A stretch of 64,000 bases of DNA. Source: Moniliella sp. 'wahieum'. Lineage: Eukaryota. Position 1 is the stretch's first letter. Every line of letters begins with the position of its first letter. The translations under genes and the position numbers were made by a program. Positions 6,780 through 58,971 of this stretch are shown in pieces. The stretch is taken from the NCBI GenBank assembly GCA_003971905.1, contig RSEE01000088.1:186001-250000 (forward strand), given 5' to 3'. The notes beneath the pieces are model-generated. The model had not been told where the DNA came from. It worked only from the letters and a program-made list of their open reading frames with translations, and searched no databases.

Positions 6780-7051
6780 TGTTGGCCTAGGGAGCCTGAC
6801 GGACAGAACGATGAGGAGAATAAAGCGATGGATTATTGGAGCCAGAGTTGGGTCTGGGTAGTACTGAAGATGAGGCATCTATATATAGGAGGCCGGACTG
6901 GACACATGGCCAGTGAGGTACACAGGAGAGGATGCACAGGGACAACAGTGCCACACGCTGGGACGATACCCGCAGCGTGGAAGCCGACGATGGAACCGGG
7001 CGAACCTGGTCTACCGCCTGGGAGCCGGAGGATCATCGATCACAGTCCACA
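6780..7051 (-). mobile_element. Diverged solo LTR of the TRIM-like family at 11873 and 49094
   Basis: Aligns by eye along its full length to the young ~237-bp LTR (TGTTGGCCTAGGGAGCC...CACAGTC[A/C]ACA); perfect 5-bp TSD GGTTG at 6775-6779 and 7052-7056. Confidence 0.9.
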
Positions 7052-11872: not shown

Positions 11873-14741
11873 TGTTGGCCTAGGGAGCCGGACGGGCAAA
11901 GGATGAGGAGAAGGTGATGGATTGGAGCCAGAGTTGGGTCTGGGTACAGAGGCATCTATATAGGAGGCTGGACTAGGCACAGGGACAGTGAGTCACAAGG
12001 AGAAGTGCAGGGCACAGGGACAGTGACACGCAGGGACGTCAGCGTGGAAGCCGATGGAACCGAGGCGAACCTGGTCTACCGACTGGGAGCCAGAGGATCA
12101 CAGTCAACACCCCCGCTGGCCAGGGAACCCGGAGACATCGGTTTGGGATGAGCTCCTGCCAGTGGATGTAGAGAGGGGAGGACTTGAGTGGCAACCGGGA
12201 CGAATGGCCTGGAGTTGTGCATGGCCACACGACTGGCCTACACCCCGCTGTCCAGGATGACACCTGAACGAGCCGAGCGCTTGTGGTTGGTGTATTGTGC
12301 GACCGCCAGATGCTTGTAGAAGTCTTAGAAGTAAAAGTAGTAGGGGTTGCGCCCCGAAGCGATTTGGTGGGCAAAAGTAAAAGCACCAGTTATAGGTGTA
12401 GTGAAAGAAAATTGGAAACTTGGAGTAAATGCGGTCCAAGGTCGTTTGGCATCAAAATTGGATGCGTTTGGTAGTTGTTTGGTTCCGCATGCCTGGTGCC
12501 AGGGGGTCCATTGGGCATGGGAAAGAACGGGCGCTATGCGTCAACCGTCTTGATCTGTTTGGGTTCTCTTTGTTGTTGAAAAGAGGAGTGGAAGAAGTTG
12601 GGTGACCACCCCCCCCCCCATCCTTTCCCCAGGTGCCCCGGATGAATTGGCAATCCGGGGCGTGTAGCCGTGGGTGGGGCACTTGATGAGCAGCCACCCC
12701 CGCTTTCTGCGATTCGCCTGCGCCGTTTTGTCGTTGGAGGAATTTCGTCTCGTTGACGATACCCGACACGTTTTGTTCCGTCGTGTGTTTCCCTAAAAAT
12801 CATGCCCCATCTGTGGGGGACGAGTGTGCCGATTGTGGCGGTAGTATGCCGATTGTGGCGGTAGTATGCCGATTGTGGCGGTAAGGTGCCGATTGTGGCG
12901 GTGGTGTTTGTTGGGCGGAGGACGGTGTGTGTCTTGTGGGCTTGCGGCTTAGCTTGGGCTTGTAGGCTTGGGGGTGGGCTTGCTTGAAGAGCGCTCCCCT
13001 TCCGGGGGATCAGATTGTAGCTCTGTTGGCCTAGGGCCGGACGGGCAGAAGGATGAGGAGAAGGTGATGGATTGGAGCCAGAGTTGGGTCTGGGTACAGA
13101 GGCATCTATATAGGAGGCTGGACTAGGCACAGGGACAGTGAGTCACACAGGAGAGTGCAGGGCACAGGGACAGTGACACGCAGGACGTCAGCGTGGAAGC
13201 CGATGGAACCGAGGCGAACCTGGTCTACCGACTGGGAGCCAGAGGATCACAGTCAACACCCCCCTGGCCAGGGAACCCGGAGACATCGGTTGTGGGATGA
13301 GCTCCTGCCAGTGGATGTAGAGAGGGGGACTTGAGGGCAACCGGGACGAATGGCCTGGAGTTGTGCATGGCCACACGACTGGCCTACAGAGTTGGGTCTG
13401 GGTACAGAGGCATCTATATAGGAGGCTGGACTAGGCACAGGGACAGTGAGTCACACAGGAGAGAGTGCAGGGCACAGGGACAGTGACACGCAGGGACGTC
13501 AGCGTGGAAGCCGATGGAACCGAGGCGAACCTGGTCTAACCGACTGGGAGCCAGAGATCACAGTCAACACCCCCGCTGGCCAGGGAACCCGGAGACATCG
13601 GTTGTGGGATGAGCTCCTGCCAGTGGATGTAGAGAGGGGAGGACTTGAGTGGCAACCGGGACGAATGGCCTGGAGTTGTGCATGGCCACACGACTGGCCT
13701 ACACCCCGCTGTCCAGGATGACACCTGAACGAGCCGAGCGCTTGTGGTTGGTGTATTGCGACCGCCAGATGCTTGTAGAAGTCTTAGAAGTAAAAGGTAG
13801 GGGTTGCGCCCCGAAGCGATTTGGTGGGCAAAAGTAAAAAGCACCAGTTATAGGTGTAGTGAAAGAAAATTGGAAACTTGGAGTAAATGCGGTCCAAGGT
13901 CGTTTGGCATCAAAATTGGATGCGTTGGTAGTTGTTTGGTTCCGCATGCCTGGTGCCAGTGGGGTCCATTGGGCATGGGAAATGAACGGGCGCTATGCGT
14001 CAACCGTCTTGATCTGTTTGGGTTCTCTTTGTTGTTGAAAAAGAGGAGTGGAAGAAGTTGGGTGACCACCCCCCCCATCCTTTCCCCAGGTGCCCCGGAT
14101 GAATTGGCAATCCGGGGCGTGTAGCCGTGGGTGGGGCACTTGATGAGCAGCCACCCCCGCTTTCTGCGATTCGCCTGCGCCGTTTTGTCGTTGGAGGAAT
14201 TTCGTCTCGTTGACGATACCGACACGTTTTGTTCCGTCGTGTGTTGTCCCTAAAAATCATTGCCCCATCTGTGGGGGACGAGTGTGCCGATTGTGGCGGT
14301 AGTATGCCGATTGTGGCGGTAGTATGCCGATTGTGGCGGTAGTATGCCGATTGTGGCGGTAGGTGCCGATTGTGGCGGTGGTGTTGTTGGGCGGGAGGAC
14401 GGGTGTGTCTTGTGGGCTTGGCGGCTTAGCTTGGGCTTGTAGGCTTGGGGGTGGGCTTGCTTGAAGAGCGCTCCCCTTCCGGGGGGATCAGATTGTAGCT
14501 CTGTTGGCCTAGGGAGCCGGACGGGCAGAAGGATGAGGAGAAGGTGATGGATTGGAGCCAGAGTTGGGTCTGGGTACAGAGGCATCTATATAGGAGGCTG
14601 GACTAGGCACAGGGACAGTGAGTCACACAGGAGAGAGTGCAGGGCACAGGGACAGTGACACGCAGGGACGTCAGCGTGGAAGCCGATGGAACCGAGGCGA
14701 ACCTGGTCTACCGACTGGGAGCCAGAGGATCACAGTCAACA
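11873..14741 (-). mobile_element. Non-autonomous mini LTR retroelement (TRIM-like), tandem array: LTR 11873-12109, internal 12110-13023, LTR 13024-13258, partial duplication 13259-13569, internal 13570-14501, LTR 14502-14741
   Basis: LTRs end TGTTG...CAACA; 5-bp TSD AGGGG at 11868-11872 and 14742-14746; G-run polypurine tract next to the LTR on the minus strand; no recognisable gag/pol ORF. Confidence 0.93.
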
Positions 14742-16114: not shown

Positions 16115-18849
<2,735 letters not shown>

Positions 18850-19780: not shown

Positions 19781-19867
19781 GCCTCGCTATTTCAATCGGT
19801 AGAATTTGGGACTTTTACGCACTGCGAGTCCATCCCACGGCTGCGGGTTCGAGTCCCGCGTGAGGCG
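19781..19867 (+). tRNA. tRNA-Lys(UUU) with a 14-nt intron (19818-19831)
   Basis: Acceptor stem GCCTCGC/GTGAGGC; anticodon stem TGGGA/TCCCA with loop CT-TTT-A^A; T-arm GCGGG-TTCGAGT-CCCGC; T-run terminator within 19868-19875. Confidence 0.9.
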
Positions 19868-20123
19868 TTCTTTTTGTTTTGTTTGGGTAGTTCGGCATGT
19901 TCCTTCTCAAGTAGGCTACGCAATGCACACGTTCACATATCGCGCTGGCTGGCTATCGGTTGCTAGTCTATCTGCCATGTGCACTTACTTTGGTCCCAAG
20001 AACACAACGATGCGATTCAAACAGTCCGACCCGACGCTCGTCGTGGGCAGCCGGGCAAGACAAGCTAGTGCGGCAGGGCGTTCATGAACCATGAACCATG
20101 AACCATGAACCATGAACCTCGTC

Positions 20124-26347: not shown

Positions 26348-27321
26348 CTAGGCGAGCTGGGAGCGTTTCTTGGCCGTGTTCATGTACGGCCGCAGCACCC
26401 ACTCGACATCTGCCGTGGCATTCTCCAGGGTGCCCTGACGGATCTCAAACGGCCGCATCTCGAACCGAGGACCGACCTCGGCGAGCTGGACGTCCTTGTG
26501 GCTCAACTTGAGGAACACGTGGTGACGGAACGAAATGTAATCGTTGCGATTGGCAAATGTCATGACACGCTTCGCGTCCTCCTTGGGCACGGGGAACAAG
26601 AAGCGCAGGACACTCATCACGCGCACGCCCAAGGGCGAAGCGAGGTTGTCAAAGATCAAGTGCGGGTACTGCTCCGACACGGTCGACTGCGCATGCGCAT
26701 CCACCTCGTGCCGCAGCACCACATTCGCCAGGTTGAACTTGACTGTTGGGCCATGGGGGAAATGGGAGACGATGAGCGCATCGGGCACACCGCGGTGCTC
26801 ATGCACAATCACCACGTCCGTAATGTCGTTGGCGCGACAGGCAGCTGCGAGCTCGGCGGTGGTGTAGCCACCCCGGTTGAGACGCGTGGCATTGGGGAAA
26901 ACAAGACGAAGTTCCTTGGCGAATTGGGTCAGGCGAGAGGAAGGATTGTGGGAGGTGGTGACCAGCACACGCGGGTCGTACGTGCCGGCCTTGCTGTACT
27001 CGTCGTCGAGCGAAGAACCGGGCTCTGAATACCATGCGAGGAAAACAACCAAAGCAGAGTCAGAGAGATGCGCAGACAGAAGCCCAAAGGGGGAGGGGGG
27101 GGGGGGGACCCAACGCCCGACTACGTACCGGCCTGCGACTCGTCGAGGGTGAGGGTGGCGGCGTACTTGCGCGCATCGTCGCGCAGCTCGGGCGGGATGG
27201 GCTTGCCCTCGGCCAAAAACTGGCGGATTTTTTGCTTGCGCGCCCAGATCTGGCGCTCCTGGGCCTCGAGGTTCTTGCGGTAGATGAACTCGCGGCGCTC
27301 GCGGATTTGCCGGCGCAGCAT
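26348..27321 (-). CDS. IMP4: U3 snoRNP Brix-domain protein Imp4; intron 27025-27128
   Basis: 'MLRRQIRERREFIYRK', 'DDEY...DPRVLVTTSHNPSSRLTQFAKEL', 'HEHRGVPD', 'LAEVGPRFEMR', 'EWVLRPYMNTAKKR'. Confidence 0.96.
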
Positions 27322-39657: not shown

Positions 39658-42109
39658 TGTGGCGGGAAAGGAGATAGGTGTGTGGGTCGATGGTGTGTAG
39701 ACTGGTATATATCCGAGAAATGCCGTATGAGGAGGAGGTTTTAGTATAGAGGGCATAATCGCCAATGGCCCAGTATCCTTCATTTTGTTCAGGGCTCTGT
39801 GACCAAGGAAACGATGATATGAAGCAAAAGCACGTCTTAGGGGTGCGATGGAGGGAGCAACTGGCTCAGGTACAGAGCCAAAAACTGAGTGAGTAACTGG
39901 CTCTCAGGCACAGCCAAAAGGGTCGCAACATGTGCTTGACGAGAAGAACAGAGCATTATGATTTTGTGCATGCGAATAAGGAAGGAAGGTGGAGAGTAGG
40001 ACACTCGACGCATGTTCAAGGCACATTAGTGTGCTCTATGAGTTGCCCTCACAACTCTGTGTGTATTGGTATACCCGCTCCATCACAGCCCATTCGGCCC
40101 TGCCAAGATATTATTGCTCGGTCTGCCAAGATATATAGGCTGGTCTGCCAAGCCTGGTTTTATTGCCTAAGCGCACGTGGCCAAAAATTATAATACGCCG
40201 GGATAGGGTTAGAAATCAAGTCGCGTCTTCGGCGATTGATGGTGTGGAGCAAAAGAGGAATGCGATAAAAACGCCAAGTACAACGGACGCAACACTCAAG
40301 AGCTGTTGATCCCGTTGGTCATGCCGATCATGTAGTAGGTCATGAAGACGCGTGAATACTGAATCGTGAATGCCATATGCCACCAAGACGTCGTCCATCA
40401 TCGATCATCGATCGATTCATTACAACACAAGATTTTCAAGAGCACCGGGGCTTTATAGTTCTCTGATGCGCGCCTGCGGCAACCAACCCCTCCTTTGATT
40501 TGTCATCCTTTCTACACCCCTATTGAATCCGCTTTCCCTTTGCCTATACCCCTTGTTGGTGGGGATCATTTACCCACCTTCCATTCTCGTCCCTTATCGC
40601 CTTTCCTGTCCAACTCCTGTGCCCGTTTCCAACCAATTGATTCAGTAAAGAGGACATCGTCTCCACTCTCATCTCCACTCTTAACTGCTTCCTCATTTCC
40701 TCACATCCTCCAGTTTTCCATCCGCCCAGTCGCCCAGTCGCCCGAGCCTTCCTTCAGCCGCGTCGATTCCCCGTAGCAGCTTATCGCGTGGGTTCCTTTC
40801 CAGCCACGTCGACAGCCGCCCCTGTCCACAGCCTCCGCTCTGGCAGTGTTTGGCCTCCTGTTGGGACACTAGTGCGGTGTGCCAAGGGCACAGCTGGATT
40901 CTGGCGCTCCCAGCCCCTTCCATCCAGCAGCTAGCTCCGCTAGTTCCGCTCGGACGGAAATGTGGCTGCCCGACATGCCTCCTTCTAGAAGCCTCGGCAG
41001 TCGTATAGCTCTTAGTCTTCCCTCTCTTCCACTCCCTCCTCCTCCTCCCTCTGCGCTATTCTCTACTATCGCTCACCAGAAGCAATCAATCCCTATCGTC
41101 TATTGACCTCCAGTTCTTGATTGCCGCCTTCCTTGGCATCGGGATCCGGTCACATCACTCCACATCCTCAACCCGTCTCTAATAAGCCCCGCAGCTTCAG
41201 AGACCTTACTACTGCCGAAGACCGAGCATACACAGTCTTGCCACACGTGCAGCCGCCTCGGCTTCCCGCCCAAAGGCCTCTCCTCGTCCCTAGCTCCGCT
41301 CGGATCCACCAGCTAGCTCAAGCACAAAACTACCGTTCTGACGGTCTCCTACGGGATTGTACCCCACAAACCTGGGTGATCCCCCTGGAGGGGAACGCCC
41401 ATGACGATCCCATCTCACCAGTCGGGGCTAAAGCGAGAGAGAAACCAGTAGAGTCGAGACTAGGTCGAGGAATGCAACATGCAATCCCTCATCTTCAGTG
41501 CATCCGTGTGTCGAGGCAGTTGATCATCATCTTCATCTTTTACAGGGAGACCGCGTGTGTGGTTTTGACATCCTCCCAGATCAACGCCCAGATCTGAGAT
41601 GCATCATCAGTGTGCCACAAGCGTCCAACTTTGGTTCAATCAATAATGCCACTTGACTCTGGGGTGGGCGCTGGGCAAAGATACAAGTGATTAACGTACC
41701 AATAAGATGTGATCTATGATTGCCGATTGTCTCTCCTGTTGGTCACACGCAATGTCACATGTGACATGTGATGTCACGCTCTTGGGGAAATTCGCTCACG
41801 CTTGACGGGTGACGCAAATAAGCGACCGGGACCAGGGTCCAAGTGGTTAATGACTAATGACGTTAATGACTCACTCATGCGTCACGCGTCATTAGCGCTT
41901 AGCCACCGGTCACCGCATCATCGATCATCGATCACTTCGTCACCGATGATCGGATCATCGACCAATGGATCACCGATTGCTAGCATCACTCTCAAATCAC
42001 AGCCAAATCACAGGATCCAAAAAAGATTAGGGGTTCAATTAATGCATTTCTGAATAGAGCAGGCGCTCGCGTTTGCGCCAGAACACCGCGGGGTAAATCC
42101 AGCGCAACT

Positions 42110-42407: not shown

Positions 42408-44460
42408 GATGTTAAGGATGGTCGTCAAGGTGTTGGCCACGGATGATTTGGGAGGTTGTGGGTAACACGCGTGGCTCAGGACGTGGTAGAAGCTCTTGAT
42501 TCCCAGTTGGGGTGTCGATTTGGATCCGAGACGACGCTGGCGATGGGCTTGGAGATGCTCGCGGCGACATTGAGGATGATCTTGACCTGCGACGGTCTCC
42601 CAACCTGGCAGAAGAGCAGGCAGACAGGGTGAGGGTGTGTTAGTATACTCAGTCCTGGGCTCGAGGGGATGTGCGAGACCACAGGTGGGGGATAGGGGAA
42701 GGCACGTATCCAGAGGAAGGTTGGTTGTTTGCTGGGAAGGATGGTGGTGGGAGGGGGACGGAAGCGAACCTGGGGGGGGCGGGCTTTTTATATCCACGTT
42801 TCCTAGGGGCATTTAGGCATGTATATATTCAGGCTGCCGATCCCTGCGACGGAACGCTAGCGAAGGCCAGCAGCACGACACTGTCACATTCCTCTGGCGC
42901 TGAGGCAGTGTTACTTTCCGCCATGCTCGAGCGGAATGCCCAGGGCAATGCCCTCTCGCGTCGCGTTCTGAAAAGCTACAGAGTGCTCTCAACTATGGTA
43001 TCCGCACTCCTGCTCCAAAAGACGAAGTGGCATCCCTTTGAAGCAGCAACGCCTCCTTTGGCCCCAGTCTGGGGGCCTCAAACTCAGATTCACAACTGAT
43101 CAGCAACCACCCACAGCTTATGAAAAGAAGATGATATCAGACCCATAGCAACTCCGGTATAGAAGTACTGCTCTTTGCAGCAGCGTGTGTGTTGCGCATT
43201 CTACTTGTTGGCACTAGATTACAGGAAGAGCTATCGCCTATAGTTTTGCGCGGAATCAGTAACGTCGATGGTATTGAACAGGGAGCCTGCTAGGGTGGTG
43301 TTGCATAGCCTCGATGAGCCATACAGAGAATTGGTTTGATGGAGCCGAACATCATAAGTCTTTTTGCCCGTATGACCATAGTTGCTGTTGAAAGGAAACA
43401 CCATTATATAGTGAAAGAGATATGGGATGGTTGGTATATATTTACAAGGGATACCGTAGTATTACCAAGACTTCCTCCCTTTTCTGCTCTTCACTACGAG
43501 CCATTATGGTGTGAAGGCCTCGTATTCTTCCCAATAATTAATGGAAAGTATGAATCAAACCTCATATGGGGCAAGCGCCTGTGCTTCCCAAGATAACATT
43601 GACGCCCATGTCGACCAATGCCCCTCCGCAATATATATGTGGTTGTGTGGAAAGCCTGAGCCCCCCACCCCTCCTGCACAACAGTCTATTTGTGCATAGT
43701 GTATGAAAGCTATCCATATGTTGTGAAGCACTGTGTGCATGTACATGTTCCCAAACATGATCCACTGATTCTCGAAAAATGCAGAAGATGCAAGCTATTC
43801 AGACTTCTTCTATTGGCCATCAGCTTCCAGCTGAATCCCAAGACTGAATATTGATTGTCTCGTTTCCCCGTTGTGATGAGTCTCGGGCACTTAGTTTAAA
43901 GATGCATCTGCGTTTCACTCGCTATAGCTACTCACTCTCTGAACTTACAAAATGACATACTAGTCTCTGTATAACGTCTGTATACCATACACAGTTGGTG
44001 TTCTGGCATACGTTGATATCTCTTTTCTAGCATACACATGCGTGCGTCTCGCTAGTTTTTGTATCAAATATCTTGCTTGTCGTAACTCACTACGAACAGT
44101 TGCCTCTAACATGGCCATGGTGTATATAGGAAACGGCATAGTACAGGAGGAAGCGTACACTTTGGCCATAAGTTTTGGTGACCGACATGGTGGTGAGAAG
44201 AGTCCGAGTCCCACTCGGCGTAGGCACGCCGTCTGCATCCATGGCCATCGACTTGGGTGTAGCACATGCCGGTATCGACTTGGATGTATCTGCTCCACTT
44301 GTGCATATCTGCATGGGCACATCGCATGGACCTTGGCGCATTGCACGACTTGTGTGTTTTTGTGCGTACTGCATAGGCTTGCGCATATTGCACGGACTTG
44401 TGCGTATCGCATCGACTTAGCGTACAGAGCCGCGCCCACGATGCGCAGCAGCACCACCGG

Positions 44461-44569
44461 GCGCATCACCCAAATGCTCACCGCATCCGCCATGCAGCAC
44501 CGGGCGCATCACCCATTGCTCACCGCATTCGCCAGGCCGGCGTTGCGCATCACCCAATGCTCACCGCAT
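44461..44569 (+). repeat. Three copies of a ~25-bp direct repeat, GCGCATCACCCAW(A)TGCTCACCGCAT, with a period of about 42 bp
   Basis: Copies start at 44461, 44504 and 44545. Confidence 0.85.
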
Positions 44570-46709
44570 GCAGCTGCCCGTCGTGTGTCTCAGATGCCCA
44601 CGCGCGTACATATTTCGCAACCCCCCGCCCAGCTGAGACACCCCCTCCCAGTGGGCCACTGTCCAGCCCTATCCCGTTCAATTTGGCCGGGGTGGTTGGT
44701 GGACCCTGGATTTGGCATACTGTCCCCGTGCCCAGGCGTCACCCGTCAAGCGTGAGCGGATTTCCCCAAGAGTGTCACGCGTCAAGTGTCACACGTCACG
44801 GTGCAACAATACAGCCTGCAGGTGGCTTCGTAACGCGTAACGCGTATAAATGGGGCCGGTGTTTCGTGCGGTGTCGAAGAAAAAAGGGCTCTATAGCCCT
44901 GGTGTGGGATGGCTGCGGCATTTCGAAGACGTGTGACTAGTGACTTTCGAAGATATACGCCTTCTGAGATCTGACCTCGATCTGACCGGTCACCGGTCAC
45001 CGGTCACCGGTCACGGGTCAACTTCAAGTGGCCGGTGGCCGTTTCACAGTCCCATGCGCGGCCCATTGCATTGGTGCGTGTATCCGTCAGTCGAGCAGTA
45101 CAGCAGTACAGCAGTACAGCAGTACAGCTACAGCACAAATGATCGAAATGATCTCAACAGTACAAAAGTCGCAAGATGGTTGCTTGTCCTACAACCTGGC
45201 GGAGCCTGGCCGAGCGCGTTGAACATGTCGAACGTTGAAGTTGAAGTTGAACTTCAAAACGTTGAGCGCGCGCTGAGCGTGAGCTGTAGCAATTAGTAAC
45301 TAGTAACTACGGCTCGTGCGCGTGACGCGTAAGCGTAAGCGTAACGCGAACGTTTATATGTTTACCGTTTACACCTTAAAAACGTTTAACGTGGTCGATT
45401 TCCGTGTGGTACGCCGTCACGCGTCACACGTCACGCATCACATGTTACATGTCACCGGTGTCACCGGTCACCTATCATTAGATCACTAAATCATTATCAT
45501 TTCCCCCTCGCATCGAAGCAGGAGGCGTGCTGTGTACTGCGTAACGCACTGGATGTGTGACGTATCACATGCACATCCCATGCGTGATACATGGTACGTT
45601 GTACACAAACCCAAAACCTGATGGCTTGGAAAGCGATGTATGTAAAAAGAGAACACACGTCTGGGCCTGTCGGGGCTGTCATGCATGTCATGGCTGTCTG
45701 GGCCTGGGGAGGTCAGGTGGAGAGTATCGTATGGCCCACACCGGACATGTTCGGCGGGTTATGGATCCTGCCCGTACGGGGAAGAGAAACAGGCAGTGTG
45801 TGGCATGTGAAGCTTGAAGTGTGAAGCAACTGTGCAGAGCCCGACGAGTGACTGATAGGACCGCGGCCTAGCGAGCGTTAAGCTTGAAGCTATGTCAGTG
45901 AGAGCGCGCATGATGCTTTTGAAGCTTGAAAAGCTTGAAGCTCGAAGCCTTGGAATCTTAGGCCTTAGGCATTAGGTCTTAGGTCACTAGTCACTAGTCA
46001 CTACCCAATACCCAATACCCAATACTCAGTACTCAATTGTACTCACTTGCTTCTTGAAGCTAGCTTGAATCAGAACTCGAAGCTTGAAACCTGAGCCTGG
46101 GCGTGAAGAACTTGAAGGTTGAACGTTGAACGTTGAACGCGCTGAACGGTTGGGGTCTGAACGTCTGAGATTCTGAGACGTTGAGGTCTGAACGTCTGAG
46201 AGTCAGATCGTTGAACGCCCTCAGCTCCTGAGGCCTGAGGTCCATGAGGCGCGACGGCCGGCGCTGAATGGGATACACAATGTGGATTACATGTGTCACA
46301 TGTCCCCGGTTACATGTTACACACAGGTTACAATGCGCTGTACAGGTTACAAAATGCGCTGTGAATCGTATAGAATTAAATATCGCCTCCCTTGCGTAAC
46401 GCGTAACAGGTCAGACAGGGCCAGGACAGAGGGAGGGGAGAGGGGGGGATGGAGAGAGAGCCTTGGAACAGAAAACGATTAGAGTACGAGACAATATTGC
46501 CAGGGTGAGAGGCCTCAGACGCGGGCAGTTTGTACGACCACAACTTGATGCGGTAAAACAAATGTGCCCTAACCCCGCCCCCACCCAAGCCCCCTCCGTT
46601 GTGCGTTGCCCAACTTAGCCCATCGAACCCCGCTAGTCCAGTACAGGAACACATTGCACCCCGGCTGGGAACGAGGCACCAAACCGGAGAATGAATGACC
46701 TCCTCCGAA

Positions 46710-48354
46710 TTAATGCAACGGAGCCGACTGAGCCAGGGGCGGGAGGAAGTGCACGTTATCCAGGGGACGTGAGGTCGGCGCGGACGCGCCGCCGTGATGG
46801 CCGGGGTGCACCTCTGGCACGTCGCCCACATACTTCTCAATCACTTTGCACAGGGCATGTTCCAATGCCTTCCACGAGAAGGTTTTGACGTCTTTGGCAA
46901 TGGTGCGTGGCTTGGGGTCCTTAAAGTTCATGATCCGCTGGAAAAAGTCCTCCGAGCCGCCCGAATACTTGCGGATCGTCTCGGGATGGAAGCCCTCGAG
47001 GTTCCGGCGGATGCGGTTTTTTTCTTCGATCGAGAACCGGCTTGCGACGAGGGCTTCGAGCAACAGAATCGTGTCGACCGACGTGATGTAGCACTCGTTG
47101 CGGTCGGCACGGAAGATGCACGAAACCACAATTGAGTTTTTCACGTACTGGTCCGGCATGATGGGGCGAAAGGTGGCATGGATGGTGGTGCCCTCTTGCT
47201 TGCGCCAGAATTGCACCAGCCGGCGACCCTCGTTGAGCTCGTCCACGGTCCAGCCGTACGCCATGGAACACAAGTCGCCTTGCAGTCGTAACTGGGCCCG
47301 AGGTAGGCGGGGCATGGCATCGGTAACGAAGCTGCCATCGTGCGAATGATTCGACTGGGGAGCCCGTACAAGCGGCGGCGCACTCAACGGCTGCATTGGT
47401 TTCCCCGCCATTCCCGACTGGGGTGTGCGCAGAGCCATTCCACGTCCAGCAGGCGAAGCCGACTGGGGAGGGGCGTGATCAGAGTAGTAGCGACCACGCG
47501 TGTATGGGGTGGGAGTATCCCGGGGACGCGCTCCAATCGACATACTGCTTCCGCCACGGATCGGGCCGTACTGCGACGAGCTAGTGGCATTGCTCGCATT
47601 CCATAGCTCGGACGAACCCGGTTCAAGCCTGGGTGGATGATGCATAGAGGGTTGCGTAGCTGCAGACCCGCAACGAGAAGTATTAGAAGAAACATCCAAT
47701 ATTGGGAAGTTAAGTGGCGGAAGCAAAGAGAGGGACGTACTGATCTGGAAAGTGCCAACGCTGTGTAGTGACGTGGTATTGAAACCGGCTGGCCGGAATT
47801 GAAGCCGAATCGGAACGTTGTCTGGATTCACAGACGGCATGTCGGCTAACATGGGCACATTGGCGAACAGAACGACCGATGCAAAGCCAGGGGAGGGCGG
47901 CGGCTCATAGCTAGCGTGGGCAGCTACGAGGAACGGGCCTAGGGTAAAGTGGAACTGGAGGTCGTTTGGTCCTGGACGCTGATGTTCGAGTAAATGGGCG
48001 GGCAGCGTGACGCGGACAGAAATCTGGGAGCCTTGGGGGCCGCTCATGGGCATGAGAGGCTCGATGCGTAGGTCATCCGTGCCCGGCGTGGCGGGCGAGC
48101 CAGAGGCGCCAGCGGGGCGGGGGGGAAGGTCAGGCGAGTGGGCGGCGCTGGATGCGAGGGGGCGGTGGTGGAGGCAGCCACCGAGTGCGCTGGGGCGGCA
48201 TGGGATCCAGACGACAGCGACGGGTCGGCCGCAGTCGACACGGGGTAGGCCCACTGGCTCGGCATGGACGAAGCAGTGCTGCGGCTGCGGCTGGCAGTAC
48301 TGAGGGGTGGGAGCGCCGTGGGACGTGGTGGTGCGCTGCGAAGGAGGCCGACAT
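46710..48354 (-). CDS. MedA/Medusa-domain transcriptional regulator; start inferred across a frameshift
   Basis: C-terminal 'RRLVQFWRKQEG..I...F', 'VVSCIF......CYITSVDTILLLEAL...RFSIEEKNRIRRNLEGF.P.TI.K', 'FF..IM.F..PKPR.I.KDVK.F.W..L..AL.KVI.KY'. Confidence 0.85.
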
Positions 48355-49093
48355 GGGGGCGAAGGAGGAGTTGGAGGGAACGAAGCAACGCGGAGGCACG
48401 GAGAGCGGGCAGAGGGACGCGTGTGGCTGCTCCGGCCGGATACGCGGCCACAGCAGCGCCCAGCAGGCCCAGCTCAGGCTCATCTGAGCGCTGAGTACGG
48501 CAGGCGCACCCGAGCACGGCCCACAGACGGCCATCAATCACCGGTCGCCGATCATCGGTCATCGATCACCGGCCAACTGGGACTGCCGGGGAAGATGGGC
48601 CTGGGGAGCTGTGCGTGAGGGTGATGTATGACGCGATGACGTGTGATGGGTGACATGTGATGCATGATGAAGGAGTAGTCGCTGATTGGGACTTGTCGGT
48701 ACCGAGTCAGTAACTCAGGACTCGGTCCCGTACGTACACTGCAGTACACGGCCTAGGTAGGTAGGTACTCGGTGACGAGAATGACTTGCAGCTTCAAGCT
48801 TCAAGCTTCAATACACACAGGGTACGGGGTCCGAAACGGCCAGGGACGGCGCGATGTATGAGACACTGCAATGATTAATGACTTGAAGCTTGAAGTTGCG
48901 CTTGAGTAGCTAGGGACAAACACGCGTCACCGTGTCAGGCATGTCACATGCCACATTGACTGGGATGATCGAGATGATCGATTATCGAGTAAGTCGATTC
49001 AGCTTTAAGCTTTAAGGCCTAAGATCTAAGATCGATTAAATATTAGGATGTTGAGATCTGAGATTCGTTGTTAGACGAGGTCGATGAGGCCGA

Positions 49094-51630
49094 TGTTGAC
49101 TGTGATCCTCTGGCTCCCAGTCGGTAGACCAGGTTCGCCTCGGTTCCATCGGCTTCCACGCTGACGTCCCTGCGTGTCACTGTCCCTGTGCCCTGCACTC
49201 TCTCCTGTGTGACTCACTGTCCCTGTGCCTAGTCCAGCCTCCTATAGATGCCTCTGTACCCAGACCCAACTCTGGCTCCAATCCATCACTTCTCCTCATC
49301 CTTCTGCCCGTCCGGCTCCCTAGGCCAACAGAGCTACAATCTGATCCCCCGGAAGGGGAGCGCTCTTCAAGCAAGCCCACCCCCAAGCCTACAAGCCCAA
49401 GCTAAGCCGCCAAGCCCACAAGACACACCCGTCCTCCCGCCCAACAACACCACCGCCACAATCGGCACCTTACCGCCACAATCGGCATACTACCGCCACA
49501 ATCGGCATACTACCGCCACAATCGGCACACTCGTCCCCACAGATGGGGCAATGATTTTTAGGGACAACACACGACGGAACAAAACGTGTCGGGTATCGTC
49601 AACGAGACGAAATTCCTCCAACGACAAAACGGCGCAGGCGAATCGCAGAAAGCGGGGGTGGCTGCTCATCAAGTGCCCCACCCACGGCTACACGCCCCGG
49701 ATTGCCAATTCATCCGGGGCACCTGGGGAAAGGATGGGGGGGGGTGGTCACCCAACTTCTTCCACTCCTCTTTTTCAACAACAAAGAGAACCCAAACAGA
49801 TCAAGACGGTTGACGCATAGCGCCCGTTCATTTCCCATGCCCAATGGACCCCACTGGCACCAGGCATGCGGAACCAAAACTACCAAACGCATCCAATTTT
49901 GATGCCAAACGACCTTGGACCGCATTTACTCCAAGTTTCCAATTTTCTTTCACTACACCTATAACTGGTGCTTTTTACTTTTGCCCACCAAATCGCTTCG
50001 GGGCGCAACCCCTACTACTTTTACTTCTAAGACTTCTACAAGCATCTGGCGGTCGCACAATACACCAACCACAAGCGCTCGGCTCGTTCAGGTGTCATCC
50101 TGGACAGCGGGGGTGTAGGCCAGTCGTGTGGCCATGCACAACTCCAGGCCATTCGTCCCGGTTGCCACTCAAGTCCTCCCCTCTCTACATCCACTGGCAG
50201 GAGCTCATCCCACAACCGATGCTCCGGGTTCCCTGGCCAGCGGGGGTGTTGACTGTGATCCTCTGGCTCCCAGTCGGTAGACCAGGTTCGCCTCGGTTCC
50301 ATCGGCTTCCACGCTGACGTCCCTGCGTGTCACTGTCCCTGTGCCCTGCACTCTCTCTGTGTGACTCACTGTCCCTGTGCCTAGTCCAGCCTCCTATATA
50401 GATGCCTCTGTACCCAGACCCAACTCTGGCTCCAATCCATCACCTTCTCCTCATCCTTTGCCCGTCCGGCTCCCTAGGTAACAGAGCTACAATCTGATCC
50501 CCCCGGAAGGGGAGCGCTCTTCAAGCAAGCCCACCCCCAAGCCTACAAGCCCAAGCTAAGCCGCCAAGCCCACAAGACACACCCGTCCTCCCGCCCAACA
50601 ACACCACCGCCACAATCGGCACCTTACCGCCACAATCGGCATACTACCGCCACAATCGGCATACTACCGCCACAATCGGCACACTCGTCCCCCACAGATG
50701 GGGCAATGATTTTAGGGACAACACACGACGGAACAAAACGTGTCGGGTATCGTCAACGAGACGAAATTCCTCCAACGACAAAACGGCGCAGGCGAATCGC
50801 AGAAAGCGGGGGTGGCTGCTCATCAAGTGCCCCACCCACGGCTACACGCCCCGGATTGCCAATTCATCCGGGGCACTGGGGAAAGGATGGGGGGGGGTGG
50901 TCACCCAACTTCTTCCACTCCTCTTTTTCAACAACAAAGAGAACCCAAACAGATCAAGACGGTTGACGCATAGCCCGTTCATTTCCCATGCCCAATGGAC
51001 CCACTGGCACCAGGCATGCGGAACCAAACAACTACCAAACGCATCCAATTTGATGCCAAACGACCTTGGACCGCATTTACTCCAAGTTTCCAATTTCTTT
51101 CACTACACCTATAACTGGTGCTTTTTACTTTTGCCCACCAAATCGCTTCGGGGCGCAACCCCTACTACTTTTACTTCTAAGACTTCTACAAGCATCTGGC
51201 GGTCGCACAATACACCAACCACAAGCGCTCGGCTCGTTCAGGTGTCATCCTGGACAGCGGGGGTGTAGGCCAGTCGTGTGGCCATGCACAACTCCAGGCC
51301 ATTCGTCCCGGTGCCACTCAAGTCCTCCCCTCTCTACATCCACTGGCAGGAGCTCATCCCACAACCGATGTCTCCGGGTTCCCTGGCCAGCGGGGTGTTG
51401 TGACTGTGATCCTCTGGCCAGTCGGTTAGACAGGTTCGCCTCGGTTCCATCGGCTTCCACGCTGACGTCCCTGCGTGTCACTGTCCTGTGCCCTGCACCT
51501 CTCCTGTGTGACTCACTGTCCCTGTGCCTAGTCCAGCCTCCTATATAGATGCCCTGTACCCAGACCCAACTCTGGCTCCAATCCATCACCTTCTCCTCAT
51601 CCTTCTGCCCGTCCGGCTCCCTAGGCCAAA
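49094..51630 (+). mobile_element. Second insertion of the TRIM-like element as a tandem dimer: LTR 49094-49330, internal 49331-50246, LTR 50247-50483, internal 50484-51395, LTR 51396-51630
   Basis: Near-identical to the reverse complement of the 11873-14741 units; TSD GCCGA at 49089-49093 and 51631-51635; G-run PPT before the 2nd and 3rd LTR. Confidence 0.93.
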
Positions 51631-54057
51631 GCCGAGGTTAGAGGTTCTGAGGTTGAGGATACTGAGGCCCTGAGGCTCATATCTCAATCTGAGGCCTTAG
51701 GGCTTAGGCCTTCCTTATTGAGGTACCGAGTGTACTGAGACGCCTGAAGCAGGCCTGAGGCCTGAGGGCATAATCTGCTTGTGATTTTGCACGATCACAG
51801 ACGCCAACAACAACGGTAGGGCAAGAAGAGGCCGCAGCAGAGACTGCAACCCTGGCGCCCCACCACAATCAGTATATGTAGGTTTTGTTCTAGCGCAGAC
51901 AGAAATAGACCGACACCAAAACGACCGTTCAACACGCTTTTGTAATGCGTTGGTAACATTGGAGACTGAGTTGCTGGAGAATGGTGATTAATGATTGGCG
52001 GTGGCAACAGCTTTTTGGAAACTGCCTACGCATTCCGAGGCACACCGTGCCTGACACCGCCCTTCCTTAGGGGTTTGTTTACGGCGTCGGCCGTCGGCGC
52101 GTCAGGCCGGCGTCTCAGTACTCAGTTCCTAGTAAGTACTCAGACTCAGGACTACTCTCCTCAGCGCCAGCGCTCAGCGCTCAGTGTTTACTTACTCAGA
52201 GTACTGAGCATCACTACTGTTGAACGTTGATGACGACGAGACGAGAAATGTTGGGAGACGGAGTGGCCTGCTTCAGCGCTTACAATATGGTAGTTACTAC
52301 CTACTAGTTAAACTCCTAGTGGTAGGCCGTGCTACACATGCTCAATATCCTGTCACACATGTCCCAGCTCGGACAGGGAATCGTATTGAGATGGCAGGAA
52401 TGCAGGAGTGGTGCACGGTGTTGGAAGGTGGGCGCTATATCATGCATCATGCATGTGTGATGCACGTGTCGCGTGACCGGTGACCCAGTATCACCGAGTG
52501 AAACACCGTCGGAATTGTCACATGTCACATGTCCCACAGAACACGACGGATGTGGATTTGGCCTATGCACATGGCCTATCGCCGGAAGAGAGCCCTGAGG
52601 CCCTGAACTTGAGGCACGACCTGGCGGTTATGCCATTGGCTGCCTGATTGGGTGGGCGCCAGCTGGTAGCCAACGCGGGATTTGGGAGCCTGGTAGGTGT
52701 GCCACTAACTAACATGCCCCTCTCTGCTAATAATAGTTTGCAAACGATATATGAACCCTCCAGAGAGTAACAGCGAATCATCTGCGGTACATGCCTTTTG
52801 TCGCGTCATCACACATCACCAAGTTACAACACCTATGCAGGACGAAGCGCCTCTCTCACAGTAATACAGGGCACGCAACCACAGCAAATCCTACTTTGAC
52901 CGGTTGCCTTTAGTGCACCTTTTCAGCGGCTTGAAAGAAGGAATATTATTGTTGCGGATGGCTTATCTCGCCACAGAGAATCATAGAACAGCATCAATGA
53001 CTCTTAACTCGAATCCCTCCGTGGTGCTTTATAGCCGATAATGGGAGTGTACACGGAGCACGCCCTCCGTCAGCTCGAGCATCCACGACAGTATGTAACA
53101 CAAGGATGTGCGCCGTCTTTTGACAGTGATGAGCATCCCTACGGTGCCCCTCCCTCCCCGCGCGCAGTATTCCCCGCGCTGTCCCGGCCCGCCGGCAATA
53201 TCTTAGTGTTGAACGTTGACTCCGAATCTATTGATACCCTTTTGCTTTGGGAGACAATTTTCTCAAGTACCTAGCATTTAGCGAATCCAAGAACATGCCT
53301 ATGTATGAGGTATACATATCAATCAAGCCGCGTTATATTACGTTAAGAGGTCGACTGGCCTGATCAAAATGCAGTTTGCTGATATCTGCATCCTATATCT
53401 GCATCTCCTGCTCTCGGTCGCTAGTACTATTTCCATCCTATTATTGCAGTGAAGGGGTGTGGTTCTCGGAAAACGCTTTCAAGATGAGCTCATCTCCAGC
53501 ACTCGTTCGACAAGACCACTATATAGAGGCGCAGCGCTCCATTCTCAAGAGTTCAGTCGCTCATCTACAAGGATGAGAAAGCTCAAAAGCTTTTGGGCCT
53601 GTAGTACAATGGGGGAGAACATAGAGAGGAGGTTGCAGCGCAAAACACTGTTACCACCCCGTGGTCTCTTTGTAGTCATGCACCCCTACCGACGCCAATA
53701 ACGCTTGCCCTTAGTGCTATCGAGAATTGGGAATTGGGATGAGCCGCCTGACCTCGACAGCTTGGTGGGAGTGCTAAACAAGAAATATGGCTTTGCTGGG
53801 ACGGGATGCGCAAATGCGCGGAAATGCTGACCATAAAACGCTTTTTAGTCAAGCCTTTCCAATGCCGCCACAGCAACTTCTTTTCAATATGAAGATCCGA
53901 CTAGCTGCCTCAGAAAACAAGGATGAGAAGGTGGGACAAAAGGCCTAAGGGGACGTCTGCTTCATTTAAGGGACCCGCAAGCAAAATGAGAGTAAGAGAG
54001 AACAAGATATGGGTTGCGGTAAACTCCAGTCTCTTCGTACATTCATTTTTTCTTTTC

Positions 54058-55564
54058 TCATTCTGCAATCATCGAAATCGTGCATGGTAGGCGCCCTGTC
54101 CCCCGGGGCTGAGTCTCGGAGTTCATGGTCTCATCGGCCATAGAAGCAGGGGAGGGAGCACTCTTACATCGAGTAGCATACACATCGAGTAACGGATGTG
54201 GCGTAATGAGGCAGTAAGCAACCGCGTTACGCTTGAGGTCAGCATGCCAGATTGCCTTCATCAACGCCTCGAGCTCGCTCGAGATGTACAGGTCACGTGT
54301 CAACGTCTCGAACGGGACATCTTCTCCACCAAGTGAGAATTTGGCCAGTCAGCGCGGTAAACCCGTGCTGCCGAAGGAAGAGCTCGTCAATCACAAGTTG
54401 CCGGTGAATGTGGAAGCATCTGTTCCAAGATTCGGCCTGCCGCTTCCGCGACAATTTCGGGACTGCGCCAGCCACGCTCGGCCCCCTCGCCCGGGTTGAC
54501 GATCCGCATAGCCGAGGTGCCAATCATCGTCAGGGGCCAAAGCGAGTTGACGCCCACCTTGCCTTTCGTCTCGGCCGCCAAGGCGAGGGTGAGAAGCGAC
54601 ATGCCCATCTTTGTGATCGTGTACGCTGCACCGGTTTGGGCAAATTGCTCGGGCCAGGCACCTCCCTTGCCAGTGCTGACCGTCCGAAAGTCTCCCAGAG
54701 GAGGGAGAGAGAGTGAGAATGTGGGCGCGGTTGGGGGTCCAAGCCCGGCTGGATTGCTCGTAACTCTTGAGCAAGTGCGGGAGTGCAGTCCGTGCGACGA
54801 GATACGAGCCACGGGCATTAATCGCTTGCAGGAGATCATACGATTTGGTCGTGGCTTGCTCCGTTGGGGTCAAATTGATCGCCGAGGCGTTATTGATCAC
54901 AATATCTAGACCACCAAACTTGTCCACCGTCGCTCCAATCGCATTCTCCACTGCCGACGCATCCCGCACATCCATTTGGATTGCAAGACCCTTGGCATCC
55001 GTCTGTTCCTCCGTACCAATCCGTTCAATCTCCTCTACCGCCGTATAAATTGTGCCGGGAAGCTGGGGAAACGAGGGTCAGCACGCCACCTTCGTGATAA
55101 GCTCACCACGTTCCGCAGTGTATACATACCACACGATGAGGTTCGGCACTAAGTTAAAAGTAAGTGCGGGAACGCAAGAAAAAAGACGCGGTTAGTCACT
55201 GTCCACCAACGCTTCCCAGTGGGGCTTGACCGTTCTAACAAATGACTTTGCCGTGTTGTCATTGTGCCGAGGTGGGAAGGAGGGGAAAGGCGACGTACGA
55301 TTTCGCTGCCACCGCAACGTTGGCTCCCATCCGGGCGAGTTTCTTGGCGATCTCAAAACCAATCCCACGTGAGGCGCCCGTGCTGCAGAAGCCGAGTCAG
55401 CTACGTCGATACAGAAGGGGAGCAGCGGGACGTACATGAACGCCGTCTTTCCTATAGCAGCCGCAATGGAGGAAGGAGGGGGAGGATATGTTGTTAGCAT
55501 TGGCTATGGGGGCCAGCAGTACAAACAGATGGGCGAGAGGAGACGTACCCCGAAGTGCAGCCAT
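54058..55564 (-). CDS. Short-chain dehydrogenase/reductase, HSDL2-like; several 5' micro-exons; 3' end uncertain
   Basis: Spliced reading 'MAALRG-KTAFI-TGASRGIGFEIA..LA..GANV.VAAKS-AEPH.-LPGTIYTAVEEIE', then 'FGGLDIVINNASAI', 'AYTITKMGMS', 'VNSLWP.T.I.T.A'. Confidence 0.88.
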
Positions 55565-56944
55565 GGTGTCGTGTGAGCTGAGGGCGGTTCCCAGAATGTG
55601 GGTACGGGGCTTGAACTGGGCTGAAAGAAGCCAGGTGGTGGGACGGAGGCAAGCCGGTAGGGGAAGCCTGTGCACGGCCCGTGAATTTAGTCCGCGACGT
55701 GCAACATTCAACGTTCAACCCCAGCTGTCACACTATCCGACTGTTTTTCCCGCCGCGTATAATACCGGCATCCGCATCATCCATGCATCATTCATCGATA
55801 TCAGCATAGGGTCAAATGGGCTGAGGATGGGAGGACTGGGTTGGCTAGGCACGTTAGGCGTTTTAAGCGCGCACACCCACCATGGATGGCCACTTGCGGG
55901 CGGAGTGGGGCCGGATGGGAGAGGCGGGAAAGCCAGCTGAGCGTGGCTGGGCTGAGCTTCACCATCCACACTCGATGATGCAATGCTCTGATTAATGATT
56001 GAGCTCATGTGCATCGTATCTCTCATCGATGAGTCTTATCCATCATCGATGGCCCTGCGGGGATCCAGCTTAGCTTCAAGCTTCAAGCTTCAAGCTGGGG
56101 CGGGGCGGTGGTCCTGCTGGAAGCGGGGATACGGACCTAATAGCTTTTGGCCCTGCATTTTATCCTGACGCCAGGGACCGATTCCTACTTGGTCTGATTC
56201 GCTTATTGCTAGCCTAACCCGCGCATTCCCCCCAGCGGGGCGCCCACCCGGGTTTCGGCGTCGTCCTTCCGAGTAAGCCGGAGAGCCTGAGGACTCGGTG
56301 AATCCCATAACAGGCGGCTGCGGAGAAGTGGCGGAACGTATTCCTATGTTGAACGTTGAACGTTGCACTTGAACATTCAAATATTCAACCCCATTCAATA
56401 TGCAACATTGAATAGTGAACGTTCAACGTTCAACCTACTTAACCTTGACTATCAACGTGTTCACACGTCACAGTCGCTTGGAGATGTTCGCCTGTGTTAT
56501 AGGGCCGTATGCGTCTTCCTGATCCATTTGATCCTTCAAACACCGCTGCTGATCTCCCCGTGAGTGCCCATCAGGTTAAGTATTCGGTATGGAATGGCAC
56601 CATGGACCGGAATATATGAACGGGAGACTGGACGACTAACATAATCTTCGTCTCTATATTTCTGTCATGTGTATATAGTAGGTGAGGAGAGAAGGATGAC
56701 TGCATGGCATGCTCATCAACGGTGGCACAGCGCAGAAAGGGTAATGCAGAGTGCAGAGGAGATGTGAATTGCATAACAAACCTCCGTAGCGTAATGAACC
56801 CAGTCATAGAACAGAGAGATGAGAGAGTGGAGGGATGGAGGATGGGGCTCGGCAAGCATACCAACCACATACGGGCATGGTGCAACTTCCCACGACGTCT
56901 GGGCCTCCATGCATCAGTCGGTCACTTATTGGCATAGTCATCCA

Positions 56945-58971
56945 TCATCCAGGCCCAAACACACCCGGAAAGGTTTTTGGATGAGATGCGTTCTCATCTG
57001 TTGGGTTCGATGATAGAAAAGAAGGTCCACGTAGAGGAATGGCAGACAAAAACGAGGACGGTTGCATGGGGGAAATGACGGACGAAGATGAAGAGTATGG
57101 CTCCAGATCGAACATTTGTCTTATCCACCAGGGATCAGCCTCTTGGGATTCATCTCCTTCGCCACGTGACGTTGATGCAATTGGAACCATCCGTCGTACC
57201 CTATCCGCAGTTGGCGAACCCGAGCCTCCAAAGTGGAATGAAGGGGATGGATAGCCCTCACGAGATTGGAGTGGGGCATTATTTGCGGATACTGTTGAAG
57301 GAGGAATGAGAGAGTCGTACCTTGGCGCGGCGGCGCGGTATCGCAAGAGAAGGGAAATTGAGGCACGTCAGGGGTAGTGATCCCTGTGCTGAATGTGGCT
57401 GAAGTCGGTTCAAGGAAAGGGAAGAATACAATTCACTCGTGGCCTGGTTGTTTGAGCTTGTGTAAGAAGTTCCGTCGCCTGGAGGGCAAAGAGGAATGCT
57501 GCTTGCACCTGTATCGCTAGCCATCTGGGGCGAGGGAGGCAGCCTACCAGACGACGACACAGGAAAGGAAAACTCCGGATCACGTCCAGCACGGAGATCC
57601 ACCTTGGTTCCAGAAACGGATCGCGGGGACCACGTGGTTGAAGAGCTGTGGCGTCGTTTGGAACCATGCTTATTGAAGCTTTTGACAAAGGACTGGCGAC
57701 GGGGAATTTCCATGTTGAGCGGTAGGCTCTTCCTCGATCCAAGTCTTGGAGTCCGTCCATGCTGCACTTCCGTAATTGGTCCCACGCCTGAAAAAAGAGC
57801 ACGACACGTGGTTGGCTCCGCCTGCAAGACGTTGTAATTGCTTACTTTTGATGGTGAATGGGAAATGAGGTCTTCACTAGTAGAAGAGCTGCGCAGAGGC
57901 TGGGGTGAATGAGTGCACGGCGCAGAGGAACGTCTCCCTTGATAGAGATGGACTTGTAGTGCGGCACTGTTATGTTCAGGCGTCCAAGTGGAGATACACA
58001 GTTGAGGATCGTCTTCAAGTATAGGGTAGATCAGACTTGTCACCCCGCATTCATCGGATAATGAACGGGCCCGAGAAAGGGAAATCCTTCGCCATAATAC
58101 GCCAACACCGAAGGAGATCACAACAATAAACAGAGAGAGAAACATGTTAGTCCTCAACAATAACTGGGGTGTTACTAGCTTTACTGATGGCGGTAGATGA
58201 ATACCAAAACAGACGTACCACACCCCCTTGTAGTGCATTTGCCCGCCCGCACCACATCACGTTCTTCGATACGCTTGAGGATGCTGTCTCTCTGCCCTCG
58301 GGTTTTGATTGGACCAACAGTAGTGCTCTGTGCGTGAGGGGGCAAACGCATGGCGAGATTGAGGAGCTTGGTGCCATTGACCATGTCGTTGTCTGTTTTT
58401 GTTAAAAGGAGAGAGGGAGAGAATTGGTTAGTCCAAACGTGCTGTTGGTTCGTTGATGCATGGTGAGCGTTATACTCACCTCGCCGGCGACAAATAGTCA
58501 CTCCGCGCGCGTCAAGCTGGTAGACCATAGTTCGCTGTTCGGCCCAATACGAGACCATAATACTGGGGCATGAAATTCCCGAAGGAACCAAAGGGATAGG
58601 GGCAGTGCCGTCTGGAGTTGATTCCAAGGTCAACAATGCAGACAAATCGGAAGCCGACCTCTCTGCCCCAGCCGAAGAAAACAAGGAGATCCATCCCCAT
58701 CCGCGCCTAGAAATTCTCTTCGTGGTGAAACCGTGGTTCCATTCTGGCCAGGAAAATGTGAAGAAGGAAGTGGAAAATTGAGGCTCATCCCTCTAGGAAG
58801 CTTCTGGAAAGAATGGGGAGTCGAACTTTGTCCTAATAGAGTGTCTTCGGTAGAATTAACAGGCATGAAGCGTACTCCATGCCCTACCGCCACGCCTTGG
58901 CTCATGACATGCCTTCCACCACTTTCACCTGAAAGCGGAGGCAAAGCCCAATTTGGAGGCTCTCTACTCAT
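56945..58971 (-). CDS. APSES/KilA-N transcription factor, divergent StuA/Sok2-like; introns 58393-58479 and 58087-58218; ends approximate
   Basis: 'YWAEQRTMVYQLDARGVTICRRR^DNDMVNGTKLLNLA...TRGQRDSILK.......V..G.MHYKGVW^ISLSRA' follows the StuA-type APSES consensus. Confidence 0.8.

Follow-up and report, generated by a model that had tools for sequence, protein, structure and literature searches.

The stretch analysed here, 64,000 nucleotides of Moniliella sp. 'wahieum' (the window; positions 186,001 to 250,000 of contig RSEE01000088.1, assembly GCA_003971905.1), contains genes with introns and basidiomycete relatives, including a regulatory subunit of protein kinase A that is 46% identical to its best named match, from Tilletiaria anomala. 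At 46713-48473, on the minus strand, lies a MedA-like (DUF7082) gene; its DUF7082 domain is 70% identical to Ustilaginaceae proteins, and the relatives in smuts are named 'related to transcription factor medusa'. By these similarities the window belongs to a poorly sampled fungus within, or related to, the Ustilaginomycotina. The MedA-like gene sits in unusually long non-coding DNA for such a genome, and on both sides of it we found islands of a 7-bp pattern in which a trinucleotide hinge, TNA, alternates with a self-complementary tetramer, the core. The pattern is the subject of this study. Its main island (44770..46410) lies downstream of the MedA-like gene, and a second one (48440..49070; 13 matches in 631 bp) lies upstream.

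The main island holds 26 matches to the 10-mer hinge-core-hinge. In its longest array, at 44983..45020, TGA-CCGG is followed by three copies of TCA-CCGG and by TCA-CGGG-TCA, with a perfect period-7 run of 30 nt at 44985-45014. Two copies of TAA-CGCG at 44829..44846 end in a third hinge that has decayed to TAT (period-7 extension l=2, r=6), and a chain at 45438..45472 shares its hinges among the cores CATG, CATG and CCGG. TCA-CTAG (45983..46003) and TGA-ACGT (46118..46139) each occur twice and close with a further hinge, the latter being continued by decayed units of period 7-8 to about 46217. Sequence identity at lag 7 was 0.382 in this region, compared with 0.308 at lag 14 and about 0.22-0.27 at the remaining lags; it reached 0.384 over 48500-49100, and was flat in 55100-61400 and in other non-coding stretches. 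The original prediction, made from the sequence alone, had listed 11 strings of this kind inside 44770-46410 and 5 outside, and all of them were present at their positions.

We counted the pattern over the whole window against 200 exact dinucleotide shuffles, or against 100 shuffles confined to 500-bp blocks. Expectations for hinges, core lengths, repeat geometries, periods, intermediates and one-mismatch forms were taken from first-order Markov resamples instead of exact shuffles, the main 10-mer count being cross-checked by exact and block shuffles; all statistics refer to this one window. TNA-N4-TNA with a palindromic N4 occurred 95 times, as against 6.85 ± 2.6 (maximum 16) in exact shuffles and 7.3 ± 2.8 in block shuffles, and the 26 matches of the main island compare with 0.35 expected (maximum 3 in 500 shuffles). 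In contrast, non-palindromic N4 between TNA hinges was not enriched in the window (118 observed, 109-119 expected), so that the comparison proposed in the original prediction separated the two classes clearly. Its count of the cores was likewise confirmed: 14 of the 16 palindromic tetramers are used, without a strong favourite, and only AATT and TATA are absent. Among the 16 hinges of the form h1-N-h3 that were tried, T.A alone was enriched (95 versus 6.6), the rest staying at or below about 1.7 times expectation, which bears out the earlier idea of a scar left by a repeated TNA-directed process. Core lengths from 0 to 8 were tried and length 4 alone was enriched; palindromic 2-mer cores (24 versus 27 expected) and 6-mer cores (2 versus 1.95) were not. 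Period 7 also stood out among perfect two-unit arrays (55 versus 3.7 expected) and predominated in the Tandem Repeats Finder list for non-coding DNA. The pattern is far beyond chance.

None of the 95 matches fell in supported coding sequence (7,852 bp, supported by Pfam or homology), an absence that we read as selection against frameshifts, and none fell in young long terminal repeat (LTR) elements (5.4 kb). Contrary to the claim that intergenic DNA is full of the pattern, the matches do not extend through all of it: five islands, amounting to 4,135 bp or 6.5% of the window, contain 64 of the 95. Besides the two islands beside the MedA-like gene, these are 41740..42000 (6 matches in 261 bp), 51680..52540 (11 in 861 bp) and 55700..56440 (8 in 741 bp). 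The islands flank both LTR-element loci and a 3-kb inverted-repeat unit, and Rfam and tRNA scans found nothing in them.

The two hinge Ns of a match agreed in 78 of 95 cases; in 7 they were complementary, and in the other 10 they differed in some other way. Because they are mostly identical, the structure is a direct repeat and not a 10-bp palindrome. When single 10-mers were extended with period 7 held, 51 of 59 gained at least two matched bases on one side and 8 were free-standing; extension by exactly two bases on both sides, giving the 14-nt form of two full units, was seen in 2 of the 59. Modal run lengths were 12 and 13 nt. The elementary object is a 12-mer, TNAxy.y'x'.TNAxy, not a 10-mer, i.e. 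a 5-nt direct repeat whose copies are parted by the reverse complement of the last 2 nt of the repeat. We placed this 5+2 geometry in a grid of repeat lengths d=3-8 and inverted-spacer lengths p=0-4, with spacers of p=5 to 8 also counted. The combination d=5/p=2 gave 91 instances, collapsing to 60 arrays, against 0.5 expected, and full arrays (d=7/p=0) gave 52 against 0.5, while plain 5-bp duplications (d=5/p=0) stayed at chance level (3 versus 4.0). Rare variants were d=6/p=2 (3 versus 0.1 expected), d=7/p=2 (1) and d=5/p=4 (3 versus 0.1, each with TG in front). Examples with four inverted bases are TCATG.CATG.TCATG at 45679..45692 on the plus strand, which has a period of 9 and TG in front, and TCACC.GGTG.TCACC at 45452-45465, inside the chain 45438..45472. 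A p=3 spacer was found once, and the window held no spacer of p=5 to 8 and no direct repeat of d=8.

This geometry decides between several simple origins. A 3-bp duplication of TNA around four added bases predicts free-standing 10-mers; it is ruled out by the one-sided flank extension and a repeated block of 5 nt. A 7-bp target duplication predicts the two-full-unit form, and is ruled out by its rarity among single 10-mers. Simple fold-back, suggested earlier, predicts complementary hinge Ns, which are few; moreover, 13 of the 17 cases with non-identical Ns keep the one-sided 2-nt extension and so look like decayed ordinary units. A two-step origin found no support in either possible intermediate: TNA plus a palindromic tetramer lacking the second hinge was at expectation (327 versus 316.5), as was the plain 5-bp duplication. 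No intermediate is visible, and the 12-mer arises in one step. Units of the same 5+2 geometry with other hinges number about 20 (a by-eye collapse of 52 rows), and the geometry is therefore the general rule, TNA being a strong site preference. Two period-7 arrays with non-TNA hinges, CATGAAC x5 at 20083-20118 and CAGCATG x2.7 at 15505-15523, can be written in the same way, as AACCA.TG.AACCA and CAGCA.TG.CAGCA.

The asymmetric 12-mer can be oriented. Among 31 isolated oriented units, the base preceding the first T was G in 19, against a background of 26-27%, and there was no enrichment of C on the far side (x = C in 10 of the 31). Of 91 oriented units, 78 had C or G as the hinge N, making the hinge mostly TCA or TGA; the TWA target of PIF/Harbinger elements, to which the original prediction had pointed, does not describe it. 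Orientations of the isolated units were intermixed, 17 on the plus and 14 on the minus strand, which argues against an effect of replication direction.

One event could be polarised with the help of an LTR element. This small non-autonomous element has LTRs of about 240 bp (TGTTGG...GTCAACA) and an internal part of about 0.9-1.2 kb, and forms two loci: 11873..14741 on the plus strand, a tandem of the form LTR-internal-LTR-internal-LTR with the 5-bp duplication AGGGG, and 49094..51629 on the minus strand, an inverted second copy with the duplication TCGGC. Both carry ancestral-state LTRs and no 7-bp unit. The two tandem loci are about 97% identical, their internal part holds 20-mer and 18-mer minisatellites, and no protein domain was found in the one copy scanned against Pfam (49094-51629). 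An old solo LTR at about 6779-7045 is about 78% identical to the family and has other small indels of +2, +3 and +6. In the alignment all young LTRs (6/6) read GGATCACAG, whereas this diverged solo LTR reads GGATCA-TCGATCA-CAG; in longer context, the young LTRs have ...GGATCACAGTC... and the solo LTR ...GGATCA-TCGATCA-CAGTC.... The solo LTR thus carries the unit GATCA.TC.GATCA (7031..7042) where the younger copies have a single GATCA. The difference is a de novo +7 insertion, and its ancestor was a single 5-mer with neither a palindrome nor a second hinge. In oriented form the site reads ctG|TGATC, so that here too G stands at position -1. The ancestral site offered no microhomology able to prime fold-back, and for that one case alternatives that need a pre-existing palindrome are ruled out.

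This bears on slippage, by which hairpin-forming heptamer microsatellites would expand while their palindromic loops escape mismatch repair, leaving palindromic units as the survivors. Arrays do reach five copies, and 9 of 68 hinge chains contain at least two 10-mers, a number higher than chance re-hitting of the roughly 2,300 TNA sites predicts; slippage is probably one source of array growth. As the origin of the pattern it is very improbable, since it requires an existing repeat, yet the founding unit came from a single 5-mer. Minimal units are also 12 and not 14 nt long, and other self-complementary hinges (ANT, CNG, GNC) show no enrichment. The earlier judgement that neither one transcription-factor motif nor ordinary slippage accounts for the pattern has thus stood up, given the 14 cores and this founding unit.

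Units decay once formed. We found 111 12-mers that satisfy eight of the nine constraints, against 8.0 expected, and the failing constraint was spread over all nine, a picture of neutral decay after insertion. Neighbouring units often share a hinge and have different cores, as in TGA-CATG-TGA-TGCA-TGA-TG at 48651-48669 and in the chain at 45438-45472; such mixed-core chains are expected if a new event reuses the hinge and whatever two bases follow it. Decay also weighs against functional cis-elements, i.e. promoter arrays to which dimeric regulators would bind. Such a role would suit the concentration in islands, one of them directly upstream of the MedA-like developmental regulator, and by our reading of the sequence some units hold bZIP-like or bHLH-like half-sites. 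Nevertheless, we regard it as highly unlikely: the core is free across 14 tetramers and leaves no conserved recognition sequence, the asymmetric 12-mer has no binding logic, the one-mismatch halo is large with failures at every constrained position, and one unit arose inside a decaying solo LTR.

Could the units be errors of sequencing or assembly? The LTR-element copies (11873-13388, 13387-14741, 50114-51629 and 49094-50478) are set apart by dozens of 1-bp indels, for the most part in short homopolymer runs, which suggests residual long-read error in an unpolished assembly. However, an artefact is scarcely credible as the source of the 7-bp units. Site-templated 7-bp insertions at TNA are not an error known to us from any sequencing platform; substitutions in the units scale with their age, and the units avoid coding sequence and are missing from young repeats, where assembly errors are likeliest. 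When five young LTR-element copies were aligned, they showed no 7-bp indels, the differences being 1-3-bp indels and one minisatellite unit of 19-20 bp.

The 3-kb unit flanked by islands deserves separate mention. Inverted repeats of 43 nt, 93% complementary (41773-41815 and 44736-44778), enclose 2.9 kb without a Pfam match. These arms are themselves built of decayed 7-mers, their similarity continues outward into the flanking arrays, and both abut GTCAC/TCA; the unit may be a non-autonomous DNA transposon or an inverted duplication. Tandem repeats of 19 bp, 23 bp and 41 bp lie within it at 44360-44569. In the window we sought transposons flanked by TNA or 5-bp repeats, and obtained this ambiguous unit and chance matches between arrays only. 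Pfam returned no transposase domain in 87 open reading frames (ORFs) of the interval 39.9-64 kb or in 44 ORFs of the 3-kb unit; the original prediction had advised searching the genome for PIF/Harbinger-like or other hairpin-forming nucleases.

Classical excision footprints are another conceivable origin. In such footprints a 3-bp TNA duplication would stand on each side of 2-nt remnants from each inverted transposon end, the order target duplication-remnant-target duplication being that of Tc1/mariner footprints. The 10-mer has exactly this architecture, matches cluster in islands flanking inserted elements, and the 3-kb unit sits between two islands with TCA beside both arms; the cores near it (CATG, CGCG, CACG) match its end dinucleotides. 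We nonetheless consider this origin improbable. Fourteen cores at similar frequencies would require as many element families, and the repetition of the core by the two bases past the second hinge, seen in the 51 extended single units, is not predicted. The core of the polarised case, TCGA, derives from a local GA, and the interior of the 3-kb unit gave no transposase match. Since the similarity of the inverted repeats runs outward into 7-mer arrays, the apparent target duplication may belong to the repeat itself.

We propose that the 7-bp pattern consists of neutral scars of recurrent, locally templated insertion through a hairpin-opened staggered break, and not of a functional motif, a reading to which we give about an even chance. 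Geometry, specificity, the single polarised case, decay of the units and their avoidance of supported coding sequence are direct observations; a hairpin, a staggered break and an enzyme we infer. The founding event would act on a 5-mer led by TNA, mostly with G in front, and turn G-TNAxy into G-TNAxy.y'x'.TNAxy; of the seven new bases, two are the reverse complement of xy and five repeat the 5-mer. The ends left by a break at (G)|TNAxy| would overlap by 5 nt, as after a cut staggered by 5 nt or the duplication of a 5-bp target. The xy end would then pass through a covalently closed hairpin, opened 2 nt (rarely 4) from its tip to yield palindromic (P-) nucleotides, and would be joined to the unaltered end that begins at T. 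Each event would regenerate its own target, and later substitution would decay the units. The agent favoured is a transposase-type (DDE) enzyme or another site-preferring nuclease with a liking for 5'-(G)TNA. Other candidates include nicks from CpG deamination, 1,3 interstrand cross-links at TNA, HUH-type nickases and retroviral-type integrase intermediates with 5-nt gaps and 2-nt flaps; with dipyrimidine damage by ultraviolet light, either strand could bear the lesion, irrespective of where the inverted bases stand.

Several features of the pattern would follow from this scheme. The core would be always palindromic yet free since the site itself is the template for all inserted bases, so that neither a special target nor a set of transposon ends is needed. 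With the target regenerated, units would grow into same-core arrays, by target reuse or slippage, and into new-core chains. An enzymatic hairpin needs no homology and hence fits the ancestral site, at which polymerase fold-back would find no place for priming. The two inverted bases look exactly as P-nucleotides should (60 arrays with p=2, 3 with p=4), as the original prediction had supposed, although P-nucleotides at the TNA end, where it had placed them, would read TN'A and not a free core. The point at which fungal Pso2 and Artemis cut a closed hairpin open lies 2 nt from its apex (PMC3299998), which agrees with the dominant p=2 and leaves room for the rare p=4.

A number of points weigh against the hairpin scheme. 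P-nucleotides occur on one end only, the double-P junction having been found once and no-P junctions at chance level, whereas known hairpin-forming transposon excision caps both flanks. With TNA at one edge of the 5-bp duplication, the target lacks the symmetry that a dimeric transposase would lead one to expect. The 64-kb window yielded no gene for a transposase or nuclease, a negative that says little for so small a sample; everything rests on this one window, and one event only could be polarised. Finally, measured footprints of hairpin opening and end joining vary far more than the outcome seen here: Ac/Ds in Candida albicans left 28 different footprints among 128 excisions (PMC5873905).

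A polymerase could reach the same product with no transposase. After a nick at G|TNA, strand displacement would re-synthesise TNAxy, the polymerase would switch for 2 nt onto the displaced strand, and the new end (after y'x') would be joined to the 5' end of that strand. This route explains why the inverted bases stand on one side only, makes the insertion begin right behind the enriched G, and agrees with inverted spacers that never exceed four of the five displaced bases. We think it possible but rather unlikely. Lengths should vary, yet d=5/p=2 outnumbers d=6/p=2 and d=7/p=2 by 91 to 3 and 1; the last joining would have to close a nick that borders a 3-nt loop; orientation is not strand-bound over tens of kb; and to our knowledge there is no nickase with G|TNA specificity.

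Among known systems, hAT elements (Ac/Ds), Mutator-like elements, Transib and V(D)J coding joints likewise give a duplicated block parted by the reverse complement of the adjoining flank. Target duplications of hAT and Mutator are 8-9 nt long (8 bp for hAT), whereas the block described here has 5 nt, carries inverted bases on one side only and shows almost no heterogeneity. Palindromic insertions at fungal excision sites are documented in PMC5873905, where the palindrome of the hAT footprint has as its centre the complement of the base adjoining the element and may stand on either flank or on both, with many alternative junctions; the palindrome here is centred after xy. Instead of the hAT-type features we found a 5-nt repeat, a one-sided palindrome, a single double-P junction and a ratio of 60 to 3 arrays for p=2 and p=4. 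Footprints of the Transib/RAG-like type combine a 5-bp target duplication with flank hairpins. They agree with our units in d=5 and p=2, but disagree in the restriction of P-nucleotides to one flank and in the TNA-edged target, and no such element was seen in the window.

Other comparisons rest on the target. PIF/Harbinger and IS5-group elements make 3-bp target duplications of TWA or TNA and have the preference for 5'-TNA-3' in common with our units; here, however, the block is TNAxy with N mostly C or G (78/91), G stands in front, and the core comes from the flank. Nor does a 3-bp TWA duplication agree with only 8 free-standing 10-mers among 59. The human immunodeficiency virus (HIV) integrase and phage Mu cut 5 bp apart at weak palindromic targets, GTWAC and NYSRN respectively. 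Like the pattern, they combine a 5-nt stagger with a preference for G-T-N-A around a free base, but the 5-mer repeated here is TNAxy instead of GTNAx, one base further along, and lacks the far-side enrichment of C. The duplications AGGGG and TCGGC of the LTR element in the window are not TNA either. In template-switch mutation, or quasi-palindrome correction, one event likewise makes a perfect short inverted repeat from local sequence. Such events need a pre-existing imperfect inverted repeat and vary in length, in contrast to the fixed lengths seen here and an ancestral site without an inverted repeat. Each of the families compared appears to fail at least one tested defining feature, be it duplication length, side or centre of the palindrome, heterogeneity or hinge composition. 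Full-text literature searches, judged mainly by titles and the openings of abstracts, yielded no description of the process.

A few further features of the window stand apart from the pattern. Rfam called a tRNA gene at 19781-19867 on the plus strand (49 bits, 87 nt; no ARAGORN call), which given its 87-nt length probably contains an intron. A perfect (ACAGCA) x26 array at 16318-16471 lies inside an ORF, at the N-terminus of a putative transporter, and gives a Thr-Ala repeat beside a poly-Gln run. A run of about 61 C at 29414-29474 and shorter G runs at 2431-2452 and 27089-27107 lie in or near GC-rich, proline-rich reading frames.

Collectively, these data lead us to propose, tentatively and with slightly less than even confidence, that a lineage of Ustilaginomycotina has an undescribed activity that breaks or joins DNA. 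This would be a nuclease, derived from a transposase or otherwise choosy about its sites, that works together with hairpin opening, repeatedly adds 7-bp palindromic units templated by the (G)TNA site itself and, as each event recreates its target, grows intergenic islands. If the pattern extends genome-wide, it would be a new and unusually precise mutational signature, legible in the sequence itself, with 5 nt direct and 2 nt inverted at a defined trinucleotide. There would then be a concrete process to hunt genetically, the candidates being hairpin-opening, end-joining and transposase-like genes. Its self-regenerating target would illustrate how intergenic regions can swell and how palindromes, restriction-type sites and DNA prone to hairpins can be seeded, and the balance of insertion and decay would give non-coding DNA a built-in clock in a poorly sampled fungal lineage. 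Such an activity would be a new source of non-coding DNA, a process that seems to help build the DNA between genes.

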